DNA from: Minisyncoccia bacterium
Lineage (GTDB): Bacteria > Patescibacteriota > Minisyncoccia > Phycocordibacterales > UBA9973
DNA length: 64,000 nt
Reading direction: 5' to 3'
Assembly (NCBI GenBank): GCA_041737125.1
Contig: JBGSSJ010000013.1
Location: 6,236-70,235, forward strand
Part shown: piece by piece, positions 34,542 through 60,407 of the stretch
How the letters are laid out: every line of letters starts with the position of its first letter
How positions within the stretch are numbered: the stretch's first letter is position 1
Translations under genes and position numbers: made by a program
The notes under the pieces: generated by a model
Told to the model about the DNA's origin: nothing
The model's database searches: none
What the model saw: the letters and a program-made list of their open reading frames with translations, nothing else

Positions 34542-35987
34542 TTATTGAGTCATCATATTCACTTTGATTTTTGAAACATCTTCTGGTAGATATGAATACC
34601 AAGGTGGGAAGATTTTTGCAGTAGCAGAGACTATGCCCGGATCAGCTTTGAATATTTCTACTAAGTTATTCTTATGGGCGCCTTTAATCTGCTCTTTGAG
34701 TTGTGCGAGGTCTGGTGACCAGACAGCTTCAATACTACCAGTGAGTGTAAACCCTATCGAATTCATATCTTTAGTGATAAGCCTTCCCTCTTCAGTGAAA
34801 GCAAACTTCAGCTTCGATACGTCAGTGATACTTATCTCCTTTATTTCCTTCTCAGAAATCTTCGGTAGCAAGTTATTAATTAGAACTTTTGATAAATCTT
34901 CCTTGTGTAGGATTATAGAAGACATAGTTCCTTTTATCATAACTCTTGCATTTGGTTGGTTGAACATTTCCTCAGAGTTCGTATCATAAAGGAATTGTGA
35001 AGCCTCATTATATAGAACATATCCTGGTGGAACTTCAGCTTCTACTTTCTTCATAAGATTATTGCGGAAAATTGTCTCAGCATTAGTTTTTATTATTTCT
35101 TTTTCTCTATCTCCTAGTGTATAGACTACACCTTCTGCTCCGCCTGTTATAGGAGTTTTGAGCTTAGCATACATTTTCGTAGCTTTGGCTGTGCCCTTGT
35201 AAGCATTAATTTTATAATCAGTTTCAGTATTATTGTATTGAGATCCAGCCAGGAATGAAGTCACTGTGACAGCCATTTCTCCGGGGACTATCTTACCACC
35301 TACTGTTTTATACCCGGGTATGGTTATAGCTTTGTCTGTTAGATATACTTTACCCGCAGCGTCGGATATATAACTATTCTTCGCAATCGTTTGGGCTTTA
35401 GTGCTGAATTCGTTGAAGAATGTAACTTCACCTTTTGCTTTATAAGACACATCATCTGTCTCACTTAGAGTTATCTCTTTGTAATCTTCCATCGAGACTA
35501 TCATAAGCTCGAAATCTACTGATGCATCTGCCCCTTTGGCTGCTATAAATGCTTTCTTATCTAGGTCAAAAGTCTGTCTTTTGTTCACCATATCTATGCT
35601 TACATTATGGAGCATATCAGAAATATAGTATCCCCCACCGAAGATGACAGCAATTATGAAGAATACTAGGAATGACTTCCTCATACCACCTGACCTTCTA
35701 CGACTTTGTGGAGTAGAATATATCTTTTCACTTATTTCGCGTTCATAAGAGCTTTGGTAAGGACGCGCTTGTACAGTAGGCTCACTCTTCTTCTCTACTA
35801 TCTTTTCGATTTCTACTCTTTGTATAGGCTTCTCTATAATTTTAGGCTCTTGTGGTTTTACAAATTTCTCTTTCACCACCTCATCTACCTCTCTTGTTTG
35901 GGCTTCGGTCTCTTTTATATTATTTTTTGAAATCATAGTGATTCGCACTCCCTTTGATTTCATATCCTGCATTATTTTTTTGGGCAT
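34542..35987 (-). CDS. bitopic membrane protein: basic/low-complexity cytoplasmic N-terminus, one TM, large extracytoplasmic domain (hypothetical)
   Basis: 481 aa. TM at about residues 104-122. Co-oriented and adjacent to the actin-like ATPase gene. Confidence 0.5.
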   Translation of the reverse strand: MPKKIMQDMKSKGVRITMISKNNIKETEAQTREVDEVVKEKFVKPQEPKIIEKPIQRVEIEKIVEKKSEPTVQARPYQSSYEREISEKIYSTPQSRRRSGGMRKSFLVFFIIAVIFGGGYYISDMLHNVSIDMVNKRQTFDLDKKAFIAAKGADASVDFELMIVSMEDYKEITLSETDDVSYKAKGEVTFFNEFSTKAQTIAKNSYISDAAGKVYLTDKAITIPGYKTVGGKIVPGEMAVTVTSFLAGSQYNNTETDYKINAYKGTAKATKMYAKLKTPITGGAEGVVYTLGDREKEIIKTNAETIFRNNLMKKVEAEVPPGYVLYNEASQFLYDTNSEEMFNQPNARVMIKGTMSSIILHKEDLSKVLINNLLPKISEKEIKEISITDVSKLKFAFTEEGRLITKDMNSIGFTLTGSIEAVWSPDLAQLKEQIKGAHKNNLVEIFKADPGIVSATAKIFPPWYSYLPEDVSKIKVNMMTQ

Positions 35988-39898: not shown

Positions 39899-41605
39899 TT
39901 ATAATACTTCCTGTTGATAACATGACTCACAGTAGACTACTTCTTGCCTGCTTGCTTGGTATGGTGAGTTTATTTCTTTTTTACAAAAATCACATTTGCT
40001 AATATAAAGTTTCCTAGGTAGTAATTGACTTAATCTATCTGTATATCTAGTATTCGGTGCTCTCCTAGGTAGTGCAAGACCAGCTTGTCGATAGAAAGAT
40101 AGCTCCATAGGAATAATCTTATAAGCTTTACCAGTATCCTCACATTTAAGTATCTTCTCTAAGATATCATCTTCGACATCTTTTATATCATCAGGAATAA
40201 TATAATTTGAAAATTCGTAATGTATATCTGAAACATAGTCACTCCAAGTAAATCCTTGATCTAGAGCTTTTTCTTTCTTTAAAGGGAATATTTCAGGAGC
40301 TGTAGTTTCATTATAACCAAAAGGTGAAAATTCGCTCGGGAAAAATTCTCCATATTTATAAACTCTGCCTTTATTATCAACATAAGGTATATCATTCATA
40401 TGCGCTTTAATCTTTGGAAGTAATTCTTCGTATTCTTCTTTGGTATATTTTTTATTTAAAATAACATAATTCCCTCCACGTATACATACACATCCAAAGC
40501 AATTCGACGCGCTAGTAGTGAAAGCAGAGTATTCTACATCGTTTATGGTCATCTTTTTAAGTGGATCATTAGAAAGACAGAATAATAGAACTTTCGAATT
40601 ATAAGCTCCTCCGCTATGAGCACATTCATACACAAGCTCTGCCGCACCGAAACAAGAACAATCATATGAATCCCGAGTCCATCCTGCAATACTCATGTTT
40701 TTACAATTCTCAAGTTTTATACTCTCCCAACAATTATGAGCATTTTTACATTCGGAAAGATTGTTACCAGTTGAATTTACTGATTTAAATATTAGATTTT
40801 CTCTGTGGGGAGAATTATTCCAAATATTTTTTATTTTTTCTTTCCACCATAGAATACCTGAATGAGACGAAATGGGATGTAACTTTAAAAAATCTTCGTA
40901 CGATTCTTTACTATGTTGTTCATTAAAAATACAATATTGTTTATTACGAAGGCCAGCACAACCAATAACATTAATACAATTACGACAATCATAGGAGAAG
41001 CTTGTATGCAAAGAGTCATAACATTCGTATGAATAATGAGTAAAGTAACAACGCTCACAGTGAATGTTGTGGGCACAATTATCAGAATTTAAAATCCAGT
41101 AATTATCGAAACAATTCTTTCCGAATACTTCATAAGCATTATAAGCAGAATCTTCATTAGATAAACCTCCAACATTTAGATAACAATTTTTATCATCTGT
41201 TTCTTGATTCACCCAATCACTGTTTATACAATTTGAATTGAAAATAGAAATATGAGGAAGGTTAAAGAATAACTCTTTCCATTGTTCGAAAAAAGGCTTC
41301 GAGAAATCATAATCTTTACCATAAGAAGTCGGGTCCCATTTATCACTCCACCAGCACGTAGAACAATACATTTTATACTTCTTATCTGGAGATACACGAG
41401 AAACTACACTCTTACCACACATATTGCAATCATTTTTATATAACATTCTTTCATTACGAAAAGAAAGTCTTCTTTGTTCTCTACAATCTGGACAGAATGT
41501 CGGAGGAGGTACATTTATCTTCTCATAAAAATCAAAATCTTGTGACTCTATAACGAAGTTATTTTTGCAGTTCTGACATATTTTGTTTTCTATTTGATTT
41601 TCCAT
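39899..41605 (-). CDS. Cys-rich protein, paralog A: full-length 568 aa with zinc-ribbon-like modules at both ends and a central CxxC-repeat region
   Basis: The N-terminal module (CxxC plus FCPDCREQRRL..RN..LY..C..C.KSV) and C-terminal module (FYRQ...RYTDRL...LY..CDFCKKEIN...YCESCYQQE) are internal repeats. Centre carries NCYL, NCFD, HCERCYF, DCRNC, GCAGLRNKQYCIFN. No signal peptide. Confidence 0.6.
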   Translation of the reverse strand: MENQIENKICQNCKNNFVIESQDFDFYEKINVPPPTFCPDCREQRRLSFRNERMLYKNDCNMCGKSVVSRVSPDKKYKMYCSTCWWSDKWDPTSYGKDYDFSKPFFEQWKELFFNLPHISIFNSNCINSDWVNQETDDKNCYLNVGGLSNEDSAYNAYEVFGKNCFDNYWILNSDNCAHNIHCERCYFTHYSYECYDSLHTSFSYDCRNCINVIGCAGLRNKQYCIFNEQHSKESYEDFLKLHPISSHSGILWWKEKIKNIWNNSPHRENLIFKSVNSTGNNLSECKNAHNCWESIKLENCKNMSIAGWTRDSYDCSCFGAAELVYECAHSGGAYNSKVLLFCLSNDPLKKMTINDVEYSAFTTSASNCFGCVCIRGGNYVILNKKYTKEEYEELLPKIKAHMNDIPYVDNKGRVYKYGEFFPSEFSPFGYNETTAPEIFPLKKEKALDQGFTWSDYVSDIHYEFSNYIIPDDIKDVEDDILEKILKCEDTGKAYKIIPMELSFYRQAGLALPRRAPNTRYTDRLSQLLPRKLYISKCDFCKKEINSPYQASRQEVVYCESCYQQEVL

Positions 41606-41644: not shown

Positions 41645-42580
41645 CTAAACCATTTCTTGTTGATAACATGATTCGCAGTAGATACGATACAGTTGTTGCT
41701 TCTCTTTGTCGTACGATGTATTTATTGATTTCTTACAATTTGCGCAAGTTGCTTCATATAGCGTACGTGGTAGTCTGCTAAACATTCGCTTCTGGTGCCT
41801 ACAGTTGAAGCACTCACTTGGAATTACAATATTCATCCTCTTATAGAAAGCAATCTCACGGGAAATAAGCTTGTAATTCTTCGTACAGCTTGTACAAGTA
41901 AATATTTCTTTAGTTAAAGATTCATCATAATCACTCGGGCTTGCTGGTATAGAACTATACTCTATGGTTCCTTGTCCTTGAGTAAAAGGTAAGTCGTACT
42001 TCCATTTATATCCTTCTTCAAGCGCATCTTTCTCGTCTTTATTTATATATTCATTTATTATCGATTCGTTATAAGCAAATGGACTCATCCATATAGGGAA
42101 GAATGATCCATACTCCCCTTTCTCTTTTAACAAAGAAATTATTCTGTCTCGTAAAATAATATAATCTTCTTTTGTGTATTGTTTATTAAAAATACAGTAT
42201 GACTTATTCCTAAGTCCTAAGCATCCAAATAAATCGCTTGAGTTATAGCAGAACTCGCTATACATCACATCATGACTCTCGACAACATTATGTGAGAACA
42301 GAACATTCTTACCAATACAATTTAGAACTTCATAACAGCTTTCCAATACAGGAGAAAAAGATCCGTCATAAGTATCAATGGCACTTCTAACTGTATAGAC
42401 GTATTTCGAATTCTCTCCACTTTTTACATCGAAACCGTGGTGTATGTTATGGGAATTATAAATATGATTTCCTGATACATCGTTGTTATGAGAGCCGAAG
42501 AACGATATTTGTGGTAAGAACCTTTTTAATTCTTCTACTTTGTCTAGTATCATACTGAGCTTCTCTTGCGACATAGGCAT
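41645..42580 (-). CDS. Cys-rich protein, paralog B C-terminal half
   Basis: 311 aa. GCLGLRNKSYCIFNKQYTKEDY... and C-terminal YCESCYQQEMV align with the C-half of 39899..41605. Same frame as the upstream N-half, separated from it by one TAA. Confidence 0.55.
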   Translation of the reverse strand: MPMSQEKLSMILDKVEELKRFLPQISFFGSHNNDVSGNHIYNSHNIHHGFDVKSGENSKYVYTVRSAIDTYDGSFSPVLESCYEVLNCIGKNVLFSHNVVESHDVMYSEFCYNSSDLFGCLGLRNKSYCIFNKQYTKEDYIILRDRIISLLKEKGEYGSFFPIWMSPFAYNESIINEYINKDEKDALEEGYKWKYDLPFTQGQGTIEYSSIPASPSDYDESLTKEIFTCTSCTKNYKLISREIAFYKRMNIVIPSECFNCRHQKRMFSRLPRTLYEATCANCKKSINTSYDKEKQQLYRIYCESCYQQEMV

Positions 42581-42607: not shown

Positions 42608-43303
42608 TTATTTGGAAACTGGCTGATTAAAAACATAGTAAGATTTACCATTGAGACCTACACACCCTATGCAATCAGTGCATCCTCTGCAGTCAAAGAG
42701 CCCTATGCTATCGGCACAACTTTCGCACTCTTCTGAATAGAAAAGCTTGTTGCAATATAAGCAATCTACGCATTCATAACAAGATTCTGATTTAAAAATA
42801 TAAAGATTATCAATAGTATCTTTCGAACTCCAAACTATATGTCCATAATCACAATCTTCATTCTCAACACAACCAAAACACAAATAACAATTCTTACTGT
42901 TATGAGCCATATTTACGTACTCTGAATTTGTACAATTTGTTTGCCCTAGGGACGCTCTAGGGACTTTCTTAAAAAGAGAATCTAGTTGCTCAAAGAATGG
43001 CTTCTTGAAGTCAAAATCTACTCCATAAGACATTGGGTCCCATCCATCACCCCACCATTCACTTACTTCATAAACTGTATAAAGAGAATCCGGAGAATAC
43101 ATCGATATCATTGATTTCCCGGACAAATCGGAATTTCTTTTATACAAAGTTTTAAAATTACGATAAATTAACCTTCTATTATTTCTACAAGCTGAGCAGT
43201 AGTTTGGGATCGGTACATCCATTCTTTTATAGAAAGATAAATCATCTATATCTAAATAGAATAATTTTTGGCACTTTTCACAGGTTTTACTTTCTGTTTC
43301 CAT
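42608..43303 (-). CDS. Cys-rich protein, paralog B N-terminal half
   Basis: 231 aa. KTCEKCQKLF...SFYKRMDVPIPNYCSACRNNRRLIYRN...NCYL...CxxCxxCxxC...GCVGLNGKSYYVFNQ aligns with the N-half of 39899..41605. Ends at an in-frame TAA at 42608-42610. Confidence 0.55.
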   Translation of the reverse strand: METESKTCEKCQKLFYLDIDDLSFYKRMDVPIPNYCSACRNNRRLIYRNFKTLYKRNSDLSGKSMISMYSPDSLYTVYEVSEWWGDGWDPMSYGVDFDFKKPFFEQLDSLFKKVPRASLGQTNCTNSEYVNMAHNSKNCYLCFGCVENEDCDYGHIVWSSKDTIDNLYIFKSESCYECVDCLYCNKLFYSEECESCADSIGLFDCRGCTDCIGCVGLNGKSYYVFNQPVSK

Positions 43304-47583: not shown

Positions 47584-47724
47584 TTATTCATAATAAGTGG
47601 TAGTGGTTGTTGTAGTGTTAGTGTTTTGTCTGGTATTAGAGAAAGTTAACATACCGATTACTATCGCTATGATCACAAGACCGACAATAATTAAAATTAT
47701 ATCTACAAATCCACGCTGATACAT
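47584..47724 (-). CDS. possible 46-aa single-TM peptide with poly-Thr tail
   Basis: Hand translation: MYQRGFVDIILIIVGLVIIAIVIGMLTFSNTRQNTNTTTTTTTYYE. Too short for the ORF track. Confidence 0.25.
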   Translation of the reverse strand: MYQRGFVDIILIIVGLVIIAIVIGMLTFSNTRQNTNTTTTTTTYYE

Positions 47725-47744
47725 AAAAATATTATATCATAATA

Positions 47745-47772
47745 AAAGAAATCCCCGTAGGGGGATTTCTTT
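47745..47772 (-). terminator. terminator downstream of the sigma-r4/HARE-HTH gene
   Basis: aaagaaatcccc-gta-gggggatttcttt, then a T-rich tract on the minus strand. Confidence 0.75.
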
Positions 47773-48802
47773 AGACTGCGCTATATAGACTGTTCTTGCC
47801 TTTCTTAAAATATTTTGAATTTTGGAGGTTTACTAAAATAGTATTTTTCTTCAAGTAGCGTTCCTTCATGACTTGCTCTACTATATCTTCCTTGCTCATA
47901 GGACCATTCTTCTTCAGTAATTCGCGGATAACATCTCGAACTACTCCAGACTTGTAACCCCATTCAGATAACGCGTATATTCCACGGCCGACAAGAACGA
48001 AACGATTATCTTTTATTAGTTCATTATGACAAGTCGCAGTGTGGCACTTCTTATCGAAAGTATTTACTATAGCTTTTGCTACTTCACGGAAATGCATAGG
48101 GGAACCATGCTTGCGCATCATAAGGAAAGCATAATCTTTTATCCCACGAGTTTTGATACTAGATGAAGTAGATTTACCCCACTCACCCAGCGGATTCCTA
48201 TTTATCTTCTTTGACATAGAGAGCCACCTCTTTGCTATCTCTTCATGTTTGTATTGTTCAGATAGAGCTTTGACTTCATCAAGGAAGCGAGCAATTAACT
48301 CACTCTCAGGCACTAACTCATCATCTGATAAATTCTCATACAAAGTCTTGAGTGACTTATGAACTTCTTCTGATATATCTCCATCTACACTCCATCGTGT
48401 TTTAAAGTGTTCATCTTCTTTGTGCTTGGTAAAATCGTCACCTAAAGTTAGATATAAGTGTATGTGGTTTTGAGTAAGCTTATCCTTAGATATATGGTTA
48501 AGTAATTCATGCTCAGAAACGACAGCTCCTAATGTATGCATTAACTTCTTGAGTTCTTCGAATACTGCCTTCTCATCTTTGAAAGTTTGTGATTTGCGTA
48601 TAAGACCAAGAGCTGCATTTTCAATCTGACGTACACGCTCACGTGTAATGCCATACTTTTTGCCGATAGCTTCTAGTGTTTTCATCTCTGCATCGTCTGT
48701 AAGACCGAAGCGATTTGTAACTACTTCGTAAGCTCTATCAGGTAGATGCGATAGCATGCGCTTTGTTACTTGTTTTGGTTTAAATGTTATAGGATTAGCC
48801 AT
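47771..48802 (-). CDS. protein with N-terminal sigma-70 region-4 HTH and C-terminal HARE-HTH-like domain (unknown function)
   Basis: LPDRAYEVVTNRFGLTDDAEMKTLEAIGKKYGITRERVRQIENAALGLIRK matches sigma70 region 4.2. C-terminal HFREVAKAI...RFVLVGRGIYALSEWGY resembles RNAP delta/HARE-HTH. Regions 2 and 3 are absent. Confidence 0.55.
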   Translation of the reverse strand: MANPITFKPKQVTKRMLSHLPDRAYEVVTNRFGLTDDAEMKTLEAIGKKYGITRERVRQIENAALGLIRKSQTFKDEKAVFEELKKLMHTLGAVVSEHELLNHISKDKLTQNHIHLYLTLGDDFTKHKEDEHFKTRWSVDGDISEEVHKSLKTLYENLSDDELVPESELIARFLDEVKALSEQYKHEEIAKRWLSMSKKINRNPLGEWGKSTSSSIKTRGIKDYAFLMMRKHGSPMHFREVAKAIVNTFDKKCHTATCHNELIKDNRFVLVGRGIYALSEWGYKSGVVRDVIRELLKKNGPMSKEDIVEQVMKERYLKKNTILVNLQNSKYFKKGKNSLYSAV

Positions 48803-48908
48803 TTGATTTGAAATTTCAATACTTTAATTATTTTAGTAATTTCATAATATCATTACTATCATATAAAGTCAACTATTTACTAATACCCTTACTTTATATA
48901 GATAAATA

Positions 48909-53620: not shown

Positions 53621-54694
53621 TTATTCTACTACGATTGGGAAAATATCTGAAAGTTCCCCAGAGTAATAGAATTCATAAGCAATATCACCGAACACATAGT
53701 CGACACCGTTTATAGTAATAGTCGAGCCTCCAGACTTTGGTTCATCTTTAGGTATTGAATAATAGAAGCCTAAGTTATAAAGAGTAGCGAGTACATCAGG
53801 TCGATTACCTATATGATATCCTGCTTTTTGCCATTGCTCTTGTACTTGCCTCATGAACAAACCCACATATAGATATGAATAATAAGGATTTTTTGTATCA
53901 GTAATGCGAGAGAGTCGCGCTTCGTCTGTCCCTACACCACCTACATAGTCAGCTACGTGCTCCATATCAGGCCCGAGATAGAAAGGTGAATTAGGATCTT
54001 TCAAATTATTCTCAATAGTTTGTACTGTTTTAGGCTTGAGTCCAGCAATACCGAAAGATGTATTCGAAAGTGAAGCGAGTATTTTTAGCGGCTCGAAGTA
54101 TCCTTTGAAAGACTCTCTCCTATTACTGAAGAATCTGAACTGCTCACCTATCACACCACCTAGAATTATGCGAGGCGGTATGCCAGCATCCTCTGCTGCC
54201 TTTTTTATAATTTCTTGGTCTCGACTAAAAACTTCCCTCATTAATCTCCATTCATCTGTATCCGCCCAGTGATATGCGGACATAGGTAAATCAATCATTT
54301 CTCCAGTCTTCGTATAACAACCATCAATCTCTTTCATATAATTCTTATCATCTTTGAATCGCACGGATGCAACCTTGATCATGTGTACTAGTACATCCTT
54401 GTTCGTACCGTTTGAAATAGACTTATATATATTAATAGCAGTAAGTGGCGCATATTTACCAAGGACGTTTACCTGGCAGTTTATAGTCAGGTCATTCGTA
54501 GCATTTGCTCTATTAGAAAGGAAGCCTTTTTTGGAATTAAAGAAATACGAATTACGCTCTGAAGCTGAGCCTTTCACATTGAGTAATCCCCACTTCATCG
54601 CAAAGTAAACACCAATGAAGATAACTCCAACGATAGCGAATAAGTAAAGAGCAATATTGTATATCTTTTTAAAATGCAACTTTGTTTTGAACAT
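53621..54694 (-). CDS. hypothetical membrane-anchored protein downstream of mreB
   Basis: 357 aa. N-terminal TM, no MreC-like features. Confidence 0.45.
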   Translation of the reverse strand: MFKTKLHFKKIYNIALYLFAIVGVIFIGVYFAMKWGLLNVKGSASERNSYFFNSKKGFLSNRANATNDLTINCQVNVLGKYAPLTAINIYKSISNGTNKDVLVHMIKVASVRFKDDKNYMKEIDGCYTKTGEMIDLPMSAYHWADTDEWRLMREVFSRDQEIIKKAAEDAGIPPRIILGGVIGEQFRFFSNRRESFKGYFEPLKILASLSNTSFGIAGLKPKTVQTIENNLKDPNSPFYLGPDMEHVADYVGGVGTDEARLSRITDTKNPYYSYLYVGLFMRQVQEQWQKAGYHIGNRPDVLATLYNLGFYYSIPKDEPKSGGSTITINGVDYVFGDIAYEFYYSGELSDIFPIVVE

Positions 54695-55798: not shown

Positions 55799-56788
55799 CT
55801 AACTACTTATTTTCTTACTTCTTTCATTATATTCTTCATTTATTCTTGTAACACTAATTTCAGAAGCATTCGTAATTTCATTAACTTTCCATTGAAGATT
55901 TTTCTCAAGATTTGTTTTCTCACTTGGTGCTTTATTTATAAGCTCTTGGTAAGTTAAGGTTAAGTCATGTATTTTAACATTTTGTTCTTTTCTTATATCT
56001 TCTATCATCTTATCTTTTGCACCTTGAAGTATTCTAAAAAGTTGCTGTTCAGACACATCGTACATCTCTTGGAATTTCTTAGGATCGAAATTCGGAGTGG
56101 TCATTGTGCTATACATTTTTGCATTCTCTACAGAAGTAGGAAACATTTGTGAATAATTTTCCATATCTTGTGCAAATTTTGCTTTTACTTCAGGAACACT
56201 CGAATTAAGCATGGCGTTTTTAATTTCTTGGCCCACTACACCTTCTTCCATTTTAGCTTTGTCCTCTGGTGCAAGTTGAGAGAATATATCCTTGTATTTT
56301 TCTAAATCTTCTTTATTAGTTAGAGAACTTGCGTACATATTCAAAGCACTATCATACCCGCGTCCATACCGCTCCAATTTATCTGAACCACCAGTCATTT
56401 CCCTTATCATTTCTGTTGAATTAAAAACTTCCGCACTAGATGGTGTTTCTACTTCTTTAACTTCTTCTGTTTTAGGATTTTCAGCATTCGTCGTTTCAAC
56501 TTCTTTTATTTCTTCTTCTGCTTTTTTCTCTATTTCTTCTGCTCTTACTTCCACGGATTTAGTTCGGATTTCTGCTTCTTCTTGAGTTCCCCCTTGATTT
56601 CCAATCATACTTTTTTCACTTTCACTTACTTCTTCTGCTTGCTTAGTAGCATTTTCTATTTCTAAAATTGCTGCATTCGCAAATTCTTCTATGTCATCTT
56701 TACCAGCCTTGAAAGCTTCTACTGCGATTTCCTTAAGTTTGTTTACATTTCCTTCTTGCTTTGCTTGATTTATTATTTCTTCAGTCAT
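55799..56788 (-). CDS. acidic E/K-rich coiled-coil protein (hypothetical)
   Basis: 329 aa, low complexity with no catalytic motif. Followed by a 13-bp-stem terminator. Confidence 0.45.
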   Translation of the reverse strand: MTEEIINQAKQEGNVNKLKEIAVEAFKAGKDDIEEFANAAILEIENATKQAEEVSESEKSMIGNQGGTQEEAEIRTKSVEVRAEEIEKKAEEEIKEVETTNAENPKTEEVKEVETPSSAEVFNSTEMIREMTGGSDKLERYGRGYDSALNMYASSLTNKEDLEKYKDIFSQLAPEDKAKMEEGVVGQEIKNAMLNSSVPEVKAKFAQDMENYSQMFPTSVENAKMYSTMTTPNFDPKKFQEMYDVSEQQLFRILQGAKDKMIEDIRKEQNVKIHDLTLTYQELINKAPSEKTNLEKNLQWKVNEITNASEISVTRINEEYNERSKKISS

Positions 56789-59093: not shown

Positions 59094-60407
59094 ATGGCAC
59101 TTAAAAGCTGTTTTTTGACAGATAAGACCCTATTCCAAGGGTTGAAAGAATCGGATTTTATATTTATTAAATTTTTCAAAATGAAAAATCAAACAAATGA
59201 ATGGTTGAAAAAAATTACCAACCTTTCGAAAAATGTTGCAAATGAGTTAACTTTCTGGTTCCTCGCACCCATTGCGATGGTGCTGGCAGTAGTTATCCCA
59301 AAAACATTGGGGCTGGGTACGTCAGTATCAATAACTACTCTAATCGCCGTAATGGTGCTATATATGATCCTAAGAACGGATTATGTAAGAACCAAAAGAT
59401 TTGACGAATACGAAGAAAATTTTCGTCACACACTCACACTCTCAGTATTTTTCTTTTTTATTTTTTCTTATTTAGAACAAGTAGCACCTCGCAATCCATG
59501 GGGGGCTATGGGTTGGATTATTGCATTAACTACTTACTCAATTGTGGTGATTCTGCTACTGTTAAAAAACAAAAAAGGGTTAAAAAGATTCTCTGTTTAC
59601 AATTGGGGGTTAGTTGCAGTTGCACCAATATTTGTAATTGGTTGTATCGCGGAAATATACCTCCATTGGGCTATGTGGTGGGTATGGGTTCCAATAGGGG
59701 CTATATTTTTCTTTGCTTTTACTTCAATCTATTCTAATTTAGATGAATTCTGCAAAGAAGATTTAAAACCTATTCTGATACTTCTTGGAATCGGAGTTGT
59801 CAGTATAATCTGGCAATTTTGGACCCTTGAAACATTTTGGAGCCTGAAGCTTTGGGAACTTCTTTGCTGGGTTGTGGGTGTAATCGTTGTAATTTTATTT
59901 TTAATTTTTCTTTATGCTACCCTAGAAAAACAAAATGAAGAGAGAAGAGAAAGAGAACTGTATGAAAAAAATAAAACTGAAAACGAGAAACAGGCCATGG
60001 AGAATCTAAATAAAGCGATGCAAATGAAGGAAGACCTGCAAAATTCACCTAAAAGTGGAATGATAATGTCTCAAGAAATTATTGAATTTCTTAAGTTTGT
60101 ATATAAATTCCATCTTTCGAACCGTGTTTGTCTTAAGCCCCAAGTATTGGTTGAACTAAAAATAATTGATTTAATTGAGGTTTCTGAAGTAAAAAAACAG
60201 ATTCGATTTGAGAACGATGCTGTTCTGGTTGCCTTTTATCATTTCAATAGTTTAGTCAAAGATTGCTTTGACGACGAAATCCTTAATAGTTTGAGAGAGC
60301 AGTTGCTCAAACTGGAAATTTTAGAGGATTATAAAGGTTATGATGTCCTCGTTAATTTAAGGGATAAGAACAACTTCCAACATATATTAAAACTGCTTCA
60401 GGGCTAA
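59094..60407 (+). CDS. hypothetical polytopic membrane protein with C-terminal cytoplasmic domain
   Basis: 437 aa, about 7 TM helices, then a 160-aa soluble tail. An alternative ATG lies at 59181. Confidence 0.5.
   Translation: MALKSCFLTDKTLFQGLKESDFIFIKFFKMKNQTNEWLKKITNLSKNVANELTFWFLAPIAMVLAVVIPKTLGLGTSVSITTLIAVMVLYMILRTDYVRTKRFDEYEENFRHTLTLSVFFFFIFSYLEQVAPRNPWGAMGWIIALTTYSIVVILLLLKNKKGLKRFSVYNWGLVAVAPIFVIGCIAEIYLHWAMWWVWVPIGAIFFFAFTSIYSNLDEFCKEDLKPILILLGIGVVSIIWQFWTLETFWSLKLWELLCWVVGVIVVILFLIFLYATLEKQNEERRERELYEKNKTENEKQAMENLNKAMQMKEDLQNSPKSGMIMSQEIIEFLKFVYKFHLSNRVCLKPQVLVELKIIDLIEVSEVKKQIRFENDAVLVAFYHFNSLVKDCFDDEILNSLREQLLKLEILEDYKGYDVLVNLRDKNNFQHILKLLQG

Follow-up and report, generated by a model that had tools for sequence, protein, structure and literature searches.

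A Patescibacteria-wide protein with a sigma-70 region 4 domain and tandem HARE-HTH-like winged helices that may read -35-like hexamers

Patescibacteria account for a large share of bacterial diversity, and their tiny genomes hold very few regulators. In sigma70, residues R584, E585, R588 and Q589 have an established role in recognition of the -35 hexamer, and the reading of this element by the region 4 helix was reportedly described by Siegele/Gardella in 1989 and by Campbell et al. in 2002. The abstract of Aravind & Iyer 2012, on the HARE-HTH domain (HTH, helix-turn-helix), reportedly mentions bacterial proteins mixing this domain with features of RNA polymerase (RNAP) alpha and sigma, which may be a first sighting of the protein described here or of a related architecture. 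The delta subunit of RNAP has a polyanionic C-terminal region with a net charge of -47 (PMC7749165). A 2025 survey of Patescibacteria reported 5,713 VirD4-like type IV coupling proteins (T4CPs), most of them encoded at a distance from virB4 and perhaps exapted, and an abundance of TrsD proteins resembling the VirB4 N-terminus; it does not mention a sigma or HTH partner (PMC12102498). Here, we analyze a 64,000-nucleotide stretch of DNA from a Minisyncoccia bacterium (GenBank assembly GCA_041737125.1, contig JBGSSJ010000013.1, positions 6,236 to 70,235), which we call the window (G+C content, 37.6%), and within it an open reading frame (ORF) for a protein that carries a sigma-70 region 4 domain (sigma-4) and a HARE-HTH domain. 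We refer to this gene and its product as the target and to the next gene downstream as the partner (Table 1).

The target is a complete gene, and because region 2 is missing it is not a sigma factor. An earlier note, made from the letters of the sequence, had proposed a fusion of an N-terminal sigma-70 region 4 with a C-terminal HARE-HTH-like domain, lacking sigma regions 2 and 3. Both peptides it quoted occur in the translation (LPDRAYEVVTNRFGLTDDAEMKTLEAIGKKYGITRERVRQIENAALGLIRK at residues 19-70 and HFREVAKAI...RFVLVGRGIYALSEWGY from residue 237), and both domain calls are borne out by Pfam: Sigma70_r4 (PF04545) matches residues 17-70 (E 2.9e-12; 46.3 bits against a cutoff of 24.1) and HARE-HTH (PF05066) matches residues 221-281 (E 1.5e-9; 38.5 bits against a gathering cutoff of 25.9). 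Families for sigma region 2 (PF04542) and region 3 have no Pfam match in the target, even at E<=1, and residues 77-343 are modelled as winged helices. In agreement with the view that this is no standard sigma factor, the NCBIfam sigma models that match at E<=1e-7 reach 28-57 bits against cutoffs of 241-800, with the last ~60 profile positions only. Matches to PDB sequences are restricted to sigma region 4 (for example, S. aureus sigmaA region 4, 4g6d, E 1.6e-9), and residues 542-600 of E. coli RpoD align with residues 11-70 of the target.

A sigma gene reduced to a fragment by truncation, pseudogenisation or mis-calling, or a chance domain match, would account for the bare presence of a region 4 and for nothing more, and we give these explanations next to no chance. 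The 35 codons that precede the ATG contain four in-frame stops, the gene upstream encodes TypA/BipA, region 4 stands at the N-terminus instead of the C-terminus, and hundreds of homologues have the identical start and a length of ~343 amino acids, with thousands sharing equal length and architecture. The upstream stops and the conserved length rule out a fragment, a pseudogene or a mis-called gene and thus settle the suspicion that a longer sigma gene had been cut short; E values of 1e-9 to 1e-12, scores above curated cutoffs and a predicted local distance difference test (pLDDT) of 96 rule out a chance match. When all ORFs of the window were searched with phmmer, no second sigma or HARE-HTH gene was found.

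The residues with which primary sigma factors read the -35 hexamer are retained in the target. Among 59 diverse family members, which are 32-53% identical to the target, the invariant positions of sigma-4 include R31, T42, L43, G47, R54, E55, R56, R58 and Q59 (59/59 members), and T53 is at least 90% conserved. Target residues T53, R54, E55, R56, R58 and Q59 correspond in the RpoD alignment to T583, R584, E585, R586, R588 and Q589 of sigma70. The basic activator-contact patch of sigma70 (K593, R596 and K597) is not kept in the family. The recognition helix of an RpoD from the candidate phyla radiation (CPR), VTRERIRQIE, matches that of the target (locus L059).

The structure prediction called for in the earlier note gave a confident model with more winged helices than anticipated. 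AlphaFold2, run on an alignment of the 59 members, yielded a pLDDT of 96.3 and a predicted template modelling score (pTM) of 0.85; no stretch of three or more residues falls below a pLDDT of 50, indicating that there is no disordered tail. According to this model, the target consists of sigma-4 followed by four tandem, mutually related HARE-like winged helices (WH1 to WH4), the third of which is the recognisable HARE-HTH. The proposed two-domain fusion therefore survives in that both domains are present but falls short of the number of modules. We assign the four winged helices because the modelled modules are related to one another by hhalign (WH1-WH2, probability 84%, E 7e-6; WH2-WH4, 88%, E 3.5e-6; WH3-WH4, 83%, E 8.7e-6), compared to a probability of at most 1.2% for sigma-4 against any winged helix as a negative control.

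The modules differ in conservation and charge. The helices of sigma-4 (residues 9-17, 22-31, 43-50 and 54-70) superpose on sigmaA region 4 chains in the PDB with a root-mean-square deviation of 1-2 A and TMt of 0.65-0.92 (Foldseek). For the rest of the target, Foldseek against the PDB returned only tandem winged-helix scaffolds (UFL1/DDRGK1, Dcc1, RPC62 and SelB) at low TM-score. WH1 comprises helices 78-90, 97-104 and 108-120 and strands 94-96, 125-127 and 136-138; WH4 comprises helices 288-299, 304-314 and 319-326 and strands 332-334 and 339-342, with T321 and F332 invariant in the 59-member alignment. Conservation follows the order WH3 > WH4 > sigma-4 >> WH1, WH2, and 17 positions of WH3 are at least 90% conserved. 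Among solved structures, the C-terminal profile is closest to the S. aureus RNAP delta subunit (8x6g_E, E 0.0087). The whole protein is basic (pI 9.4, net charge +13), and it has no acidic delta-like tail, the C-terminus being a folded basic winged helix.

From residue conservation, we predict that the target binds DNA, that its sigma-4 domain reads TTGAC-type hexamers, and that WH3-WH4 offers a further surface, for DNA or for a protein. We tentatively favour the explanation that the target is a complete, Patescibacteria-specific, probably abundant trans-acting factor that reads -35-like hexamers and is neither a sigma nor a delta. Sigma-4 would bind TTGAC-type hexamers in double-stranded DNA, which we propose because all -35-reading residues of primary sigma factors are kept. 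The basic and highly conserved HARE-HTH and WH4 would touch either the DNA next to it or a conserved surface on a protein, which may be the beta' shelf or jaw of RNAP, as for the delta N-terminal domain, and the acidic, fast-evolving WH1-WH2 pair may be a spacer or a partner-binding arm. Lacking regions 2 and 3, the target would neither bind core RNAP in the manner of a sigma factor nor melt the -10 element; its action would then be in trans, at -35-like sites that it may occupy or bookmark, in competition or cooperation with the sigmaA holoenzyme.

Most target orthologues have such a hexamer upstream. Counting within 150 nucleotides (nt) upstream across loci, we found TTGAC before the target orthologue at 72 of 84 loci (86%), compared to 4/75 for the partner, 1/20 for typA, 2/47 for mltG, 4/43 for mnmA and 5/24 for leuS; in neighbouring gene families overall, the share was 0-21%. 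Among 301 generic upstream regions, taken where the gap was 60 nt or more, 34 (11%) contained TTGAC, close to the chance level. Tandem TTGAC motifs were present in 9/86 target upstream regions and in 0/301 controls (Fisher p 9e-7), at spacings of 10, 11, 17 or 28 nt, with 9/10 at 10-17 nt. In the 64 kb of the window, only five intergenic sites fit the full consensus TTGAC[AT]-N15-19-TAnn[AT]T, and most gene upstream regions lack any TTGAC (4/31 have one), which suggests that this organism relies mostly on promoters that are -35-less or of the extended -10 type. Promoters of the form TTGAC(A/T)-17-TAnnAT are in use in these organisms, for example before infA-rpmJ-rpsM. Two readings fit the promoter data, as judged from sequence: simply strong expression of the target, or autoregulation through binding of the product to its own -35 region. 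Under the explanation that we favour, autoregulation through the target's own unusually consensus TTGAC promoter would be probable.

In the whole window, including the surroundings of the consensus promoters, ARAGORN detected no tRNA gene, and no Rfam family reached its gathering score. Separately, seven window ORFs of 231-568 amino acids (Table 1) have no Pfam match; two of the three scanned against NCBIfam gave noise only (E>0.1). Genes for MreB and FtsA/PilM-like proteins are scattered among these ORFs, and the one at 55799-56788 is preceded by a consensus TTGAC promoter.

Both recognisable domains of the target stem from RNAP-associated proteins. One interpretation, which we consider unlikely, is that the target sits on RNAP as an accessory subunit or competes with sigma, with sigma-4 on the beta-flap tip helix and HARE-HTH on the beta' shelf or jaw; it would be a sigma mimic, an anti-sigma-like factor or a delta analogue that modulates initiation or recycling without specific DNA binding. 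The earlier note had likewise proposed a sigma mimic, an anti-sigma-type regulator or an RNAP accessory factor, any of which the target may be. Very high conservation over the whole length is expected for contact with a conserved machine, the strong consensus promoter suggests abundance, and some JGI records bear the name "DNA-directed RNA polymerase delta subunit". However, invariance in sigma-4 extends beyond the core residues of the domain to those that read DNA, no rpo genes are adjacent to the target at any surveyed locus, and the pTM of the model implies that sigma-4 is packed on the winged-helix array, which may occlude the flap-binding groove. The target is also not an RNAP delta subunit, nor delta-like in mechanism, because it is strongly basic, lacks an acidic region and scores below the cutoff of the delta model TIGR04567 (30.4 against 42 bits, with an internal match at residues 223-282).

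The target belongs to a large family whose full-length genomic matches were all in Patescibacteria. A word-indexed search matched at least 8000 proteins, and the best 120 of these were 81-100% identical to the target, all ~343 amino acids long and with both Pfam tags. Database protein P0001 is 100% identical to the target, and over 100 clusters are 81-91% identical to it. When representatives at 50% identity were searched exhaustively, the family came to at least 585 clusters at E<1e-30, nearly all of them full-length (330-390 amino acids). A scan of species-representative genomes, dominated by RpoD matches to TRERVRQIE, returned 13 full-length loci (L001-L013) among 80. All 13 are from Patescibacteria/CPR, in which the lineages with the target include Paceibacterota, Kaiserbacteria, the Parcubacteria group, Doudnabacteria and Peregrinibacteria, among others; matches in non-CPR species representatives were to RpoD region 4 only. 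The architecture is thus repeated in related genomes, as the earlier note had suggested checking, and its description of an "unusual fusion" applies to the kind of protein but not to its frequency, as this is a Patescibacteria-wide family already labelled by NCBI and JGI. An 81%-identical orthologue lies in the same synteny on an 800-kb scaffold. In the assembly collection it is present in 81 blocks, and one member of its protein cluster is named by NCBI as Candidatus Nomurabacteria.

Existing names for the family vary. NCBI uses "sigma factor-like helix-turn-helix DNA-binding protein" and JGI uses [quoted passage not shown], and a Giovannonibacteria record reads "RNA polymerase sigma factor". 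Records that name the family as a sigma factor or a delta subunit are mis-annotations; the target is neither. Among variants, P0128 (327 amino acids) has an AAA_14 ATPase N-terminus and a C-terminal half that is 65% identical to target residues 140-343 (WH2-WH4), with a HARE-HTH match; it is either a real domain swap of sigma-4/WH1 or an assembly chimera. Two other candidates for informative fusions, P0159 (SecF plus target) and P0268 (target plus DnaA_C), were rejected as apparent gene-call read-throughs, and P0159 merely reflects the synteny of SecDF with the target. A phage origin was ruled out, as the family had one weak match in IMG/VR and no whole-architecture fold match in BFVD. Membership in an anti-phage defence system (MZA) was likewise ruled out, as PADLOC matched only the sigma-4 part of MzaA, at 26.5 bits, and the neighbours are housekeeping genes. 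The target is therefore a cellular gene in a housekeeping context, neither viral nor defensive.

The genomic neighbourhood adds a further association. On the minus strand of the window, the order of genes is an RseP-like protease, TypA, the target, a transmembrane ORF of ~46 amino acids, the 431-amino-acid partner, MltG/YceG, an S-adenosylmethionine methyltransferase and MnmA. We surveyed 94 target loci, 13 from species genomes, 80 from metagenomes and 1 from viral contigs. A partner orthologue lies directly downstream on the same strand at 82 of the 94 loci, of which ~86 are informative: among the 12 loci lacking it, 8 have less than 400 nt of contig remaining and 1 has 907 nt, leaving L011, L125 and L133 as the only real exceptions with ample downstream sequence. 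At L011 (Peregrinibacteria), the target is followed by DnaE and AspRS. The median gap between target and partner is 78 nt. The gene upstream of the target varies among loci (TypA, LeuRS, SecD-SecF or TopA). In L001-L004, the target is 76/68/60/51% identical, on a par with TypA, compared to 69/38/33/31% for the partner.

Two side observations concern these neighbours. The ~46-amino-acid ORF is kept at the same position in L001, L082-L084, L090, L096 and L162/L163 (tblastn); it has a TATAAT-like box upstream and is uncalled in public records. In many Paceibacteria loci (including many ORFs in L101-L159), the LeuRS gene that precedes the target has NUDIX domains inserted within the synthetase, an unusual architecture exemplified by a 1305-amino-acid protein with three NUDIX stretches at L147.

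The partner resembles a component of type IV secretion systems in its fold. It has no match by sequence in Pfam (E<=10), NCBIfam or the PDB. Its homologues carry the precomputed tag PF26449.1, a family also named DUF8128 and mentioned in no paper of the searchable literature. The AlphaFold2 model of the partner (pLDDT 82, pTM 0.81) shows two N-terminal transmembrane helices and an alpha/beta domain and has no ATPase domain. All of the top 10 Foldseek matches in the PDB are TrwK/VirB4 structures of R388 type IV secretion (E 1.8e-4 to 1.1e-2, TMq ~0.35), 7 of them at E<=1e-3, and the next matches have E>=0.1. In five more distant CPR loci (L006-L010), and in these only, which belong to other CPR classes than the clade of the window, the partner is directly followed by an ATPase of 575-631 amino acids with TrwB_AAD_bind, DUF87, a TraG P-loop and a treble-clef zinc finger, which PADLOC labels mad8/HerA-like and which has no transmembrane segment of its own. 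Partner and ATPase together resemble a split VirB3/VirB4-like or coupling-protein-like unit. The constant pairing with a membrane protein, joined by an ATPase in other CPR classes, suggests that the DNA-reading activity of the target is functionally tied to a membrane ATPase module.

Alternatively, the target may be a component or adaptor of this VirB4-N-terminal-like and VirD4-like ATPase module, or simply the local transcriptional regulator of that operon, which we regard as possible although rather unlikely. As an adaptor, it could use sigma-4 and the winged helices to hold DNA, which it would pass on to an exapted T4CP or FtsK-HerA-type motor or place in the right orientation for such a motor, by analogy with the winged helices of FtsK gamma or TraB, which read polar motifs, or with a relaxosome accessory protein docking on a coupling protein. 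The near-constant adjacency and short gap, the TrwK/VirB4-like fold of the partner, the order of target, partner and ATPase in L006-L010, and the many possibly exapted T4CPs of Patescibacteria all argue for such a role, as does the persistence of the pair while its flanks change. At the same time, conservation of the target far exceeds that of the partner, which is atypical of an adaptor or a local regulator; upstream regions of the partner show no enrichment of TTGAC; L011 has a target with no partner nearby; the target of the window has a terminator-like hairpin of its own; and in the window's own clade no VirD4-like ATPase was found within +/-8 kb of the target or anywhere in the 64-kb window. 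A further-reaching and quite improbable proposal is that a lineage-wide, highly expressed sigma-4 protein acting in trans reads TTGAC hexamers of the -35 type and couples them physically to a membrane-anchored, split VirB4/VirD4-like ATPase or, via its delta-like HARE-HTH, to RNAP instead, with the hexamers serving as address labels.

In support of the target as a trans-acting factor that reads -35-like hexamers we count the domain scores above cutoffs, the invariant recognition helix and its match in a CPR RpoD, the use of TTGAC-type promoters in these organisms, the basic charge, the confident model with its four related winged helices, slow evolution, the TTGAC promoter, partner adjacency and the housekeeping context. 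Several points weigh against it. DNA binding, specificity and RNAP contact are deduced from residue conservation, and the conserved sigma-4 residues could be kept for a purpose other than -35 reading. A consensus promoter may mean high expression only, as the operon of infA and ribosomal proteins has one too. In the window, the target need not be co-transcribed with the partner, because it has its own promoter and a terminator-like hairpin, the opposite-strand view of which was also picked up by the terminator scan. The likeness of HARE-HTH to delta is weak, in view of both the TIGR04567 score and the E value of 8x6g_E, and the 94 loci are phylogenetically related and hence not independent samples.

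Table 1. Coordinates of the target, its modules and associated features. Positions refer to the window unless a locus is named.
Feature	Position	Strand	Remarks
Target, complete coding sequence	47771..48802	-	ATG start, 343 amino acids; ORF listing
Sigma-70 region 4 domain, residues ~9-76	48575..48778	-	Four helices, region 4.2 HTH ITRERVRQIE; PF04545, 46.3 bits; net charge +6
WH1, residues 77-140	48383..48574	-	Acidic winged helix, poorly conserved; net charge -3
WH2, residues 141-215	48158..48382	-	Acidic winged-helix-like module, poorly conserved; net charge -4; AlphaFold2
WH3 (HARE-HTH), residues 216-284	47951..48157	-	Basic, most conserved module; PF05066, 38.5 bits; net charge +7
WH4, residues 285-343	47774..47950	-	Basic, conserved, HARE-HTH-related; net charge +7; AlphaFold2, hhalign
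Target promoter, TTGACT-17 nt-(TG)TATTAT	48844..48872	-	~40 nt 5' of ATG; consensus scan 10/12, extended -10 TG
Terminator-like hairpin, AAAGAAATCCCC-ctac-GGGGATTTCTTT	47745..47772	-	12-bp stem, overlaps target stop codon; read from sequence
Single-transmembrane ORF, ~46 amino acids (MYQRGFVDIILIIVGLVIIAIVIGML...)	47584..47724	-	Between target and partner; read from sequence
Partner gene, 431 amino acids	46274..47569	-	Two N-terminal transmembrane helices and VirB4-N-terminal-like fold; homologues tagged PF26449
Consensus promoter sites	27219(-), 34536(-), 39009(+), 48872(-), 57002(-)		One before infA-rpmJ-rpsM, one before target
TrwB/VirD4-like ATPases	L006:5550-7277, L007:8394-10154, L008:8896-10728, L009:8513-10408, L010:4643-6043		Directly after partner
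ORFs lacking a Pfam match	34542-35987, 39899-41605, 41645-42580, 42608-43303, 53621-54694, 55799-56788, 59094-60407		231-568 amino acids
LeuRS with NUDIX	L003:3503-5752, L147:3369-7286		

What is already known comprises both domains and their combination, which is listed in databases. No paper in the searchable literature describes sigma-4 together with HARE-HTH in CPR bacteria. Apparently new to that literature are the four-winged-helix anatomy and phylum-wide conservation of the target, an invariant -35-reading helix outside a sigma factor, and the conserved pairing with a VirB4-N-terminal-like protein together with a singular consensus promoter. The target combines the promoter-reading part of a sigma factor with a delta-type winged helix, behind one of the few consensus promoters of the region. 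Being conserved about as tightly as a translation GTPase, it merits listing among the uncharacterised core functions of CPR bacteria. Should the target bind -35 hexamers in trans, this would represent a new way to regulate promoter recognition or compete with it. If it works with the VirB4-N-terminal-like protein and orphan VirD4-like ATPases, it could provide the first functional handle on thousands of "exapted" coupling proteins (PMC12102498). The address-label proposal, if true, would imply a machine for DNA handling or for transcription-membrane coupling that is unique to these ultra-small bacteria.

The target has likenesses to several known systems. FtsK gamma, which reads FtsK-orienting polar sequences (KOPS), and Streptomyces TraB, which reads clt repeats, are similar in genomic context only, with an HTH gene beside a VirB4/VirD4 (FtsK-HerA superfamily) module; the target is a separate protein with a sigma-4 domain, and the link is genetic, not biochemical. 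The tandem winged-helix scaffolds RPC62/RPC3 of Pol III, Dcc1-Ctf18, the SelB C-terminus and UFL1-DDRGK1 are, like the target, arrays of three to four winged helices, but the TM-score is ~0.2, there is no sequence similarity and none has a sigma-4 domain, so that the likeness is one of fold class. The HARE-HTH of restriction and DNA-modification-sensing enzymes is of the same winged-helix family, PF05066, a proposed DNA binder, whereas the target has no nuclease, methylase or defence neighbourhood. RNAP delta (RpoE) of Firmicutes has HARE-HTH in common with the target and is the closest solved relative of its C-terminal profile; in the target, however, this domain is internal, not N-terminal, the protein is about twice as long and, at net +13, has no polyanionic C-terminal region, and the delta model falls short of its cutoff. 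A further likeness is to region 4 (4.1-4.2) of group 1/2 sigma-70 factors (RpoD, SigA and RpoS), which has the same four-helix fold, 40-47% identity to the sigma-4 of the target and an identical recognition helix, T-R-E-R-x-R-Q-I-E, with region 4 of RpoD/SigA giving the best NCBIfam and PDB matches. The target departs from sigma-70 factors in the loss of the activator-contact patch, in the absence of regions 1.1, 2 and 3, and in the placement of this domain at the N-terminus, ahead of four winged helices.

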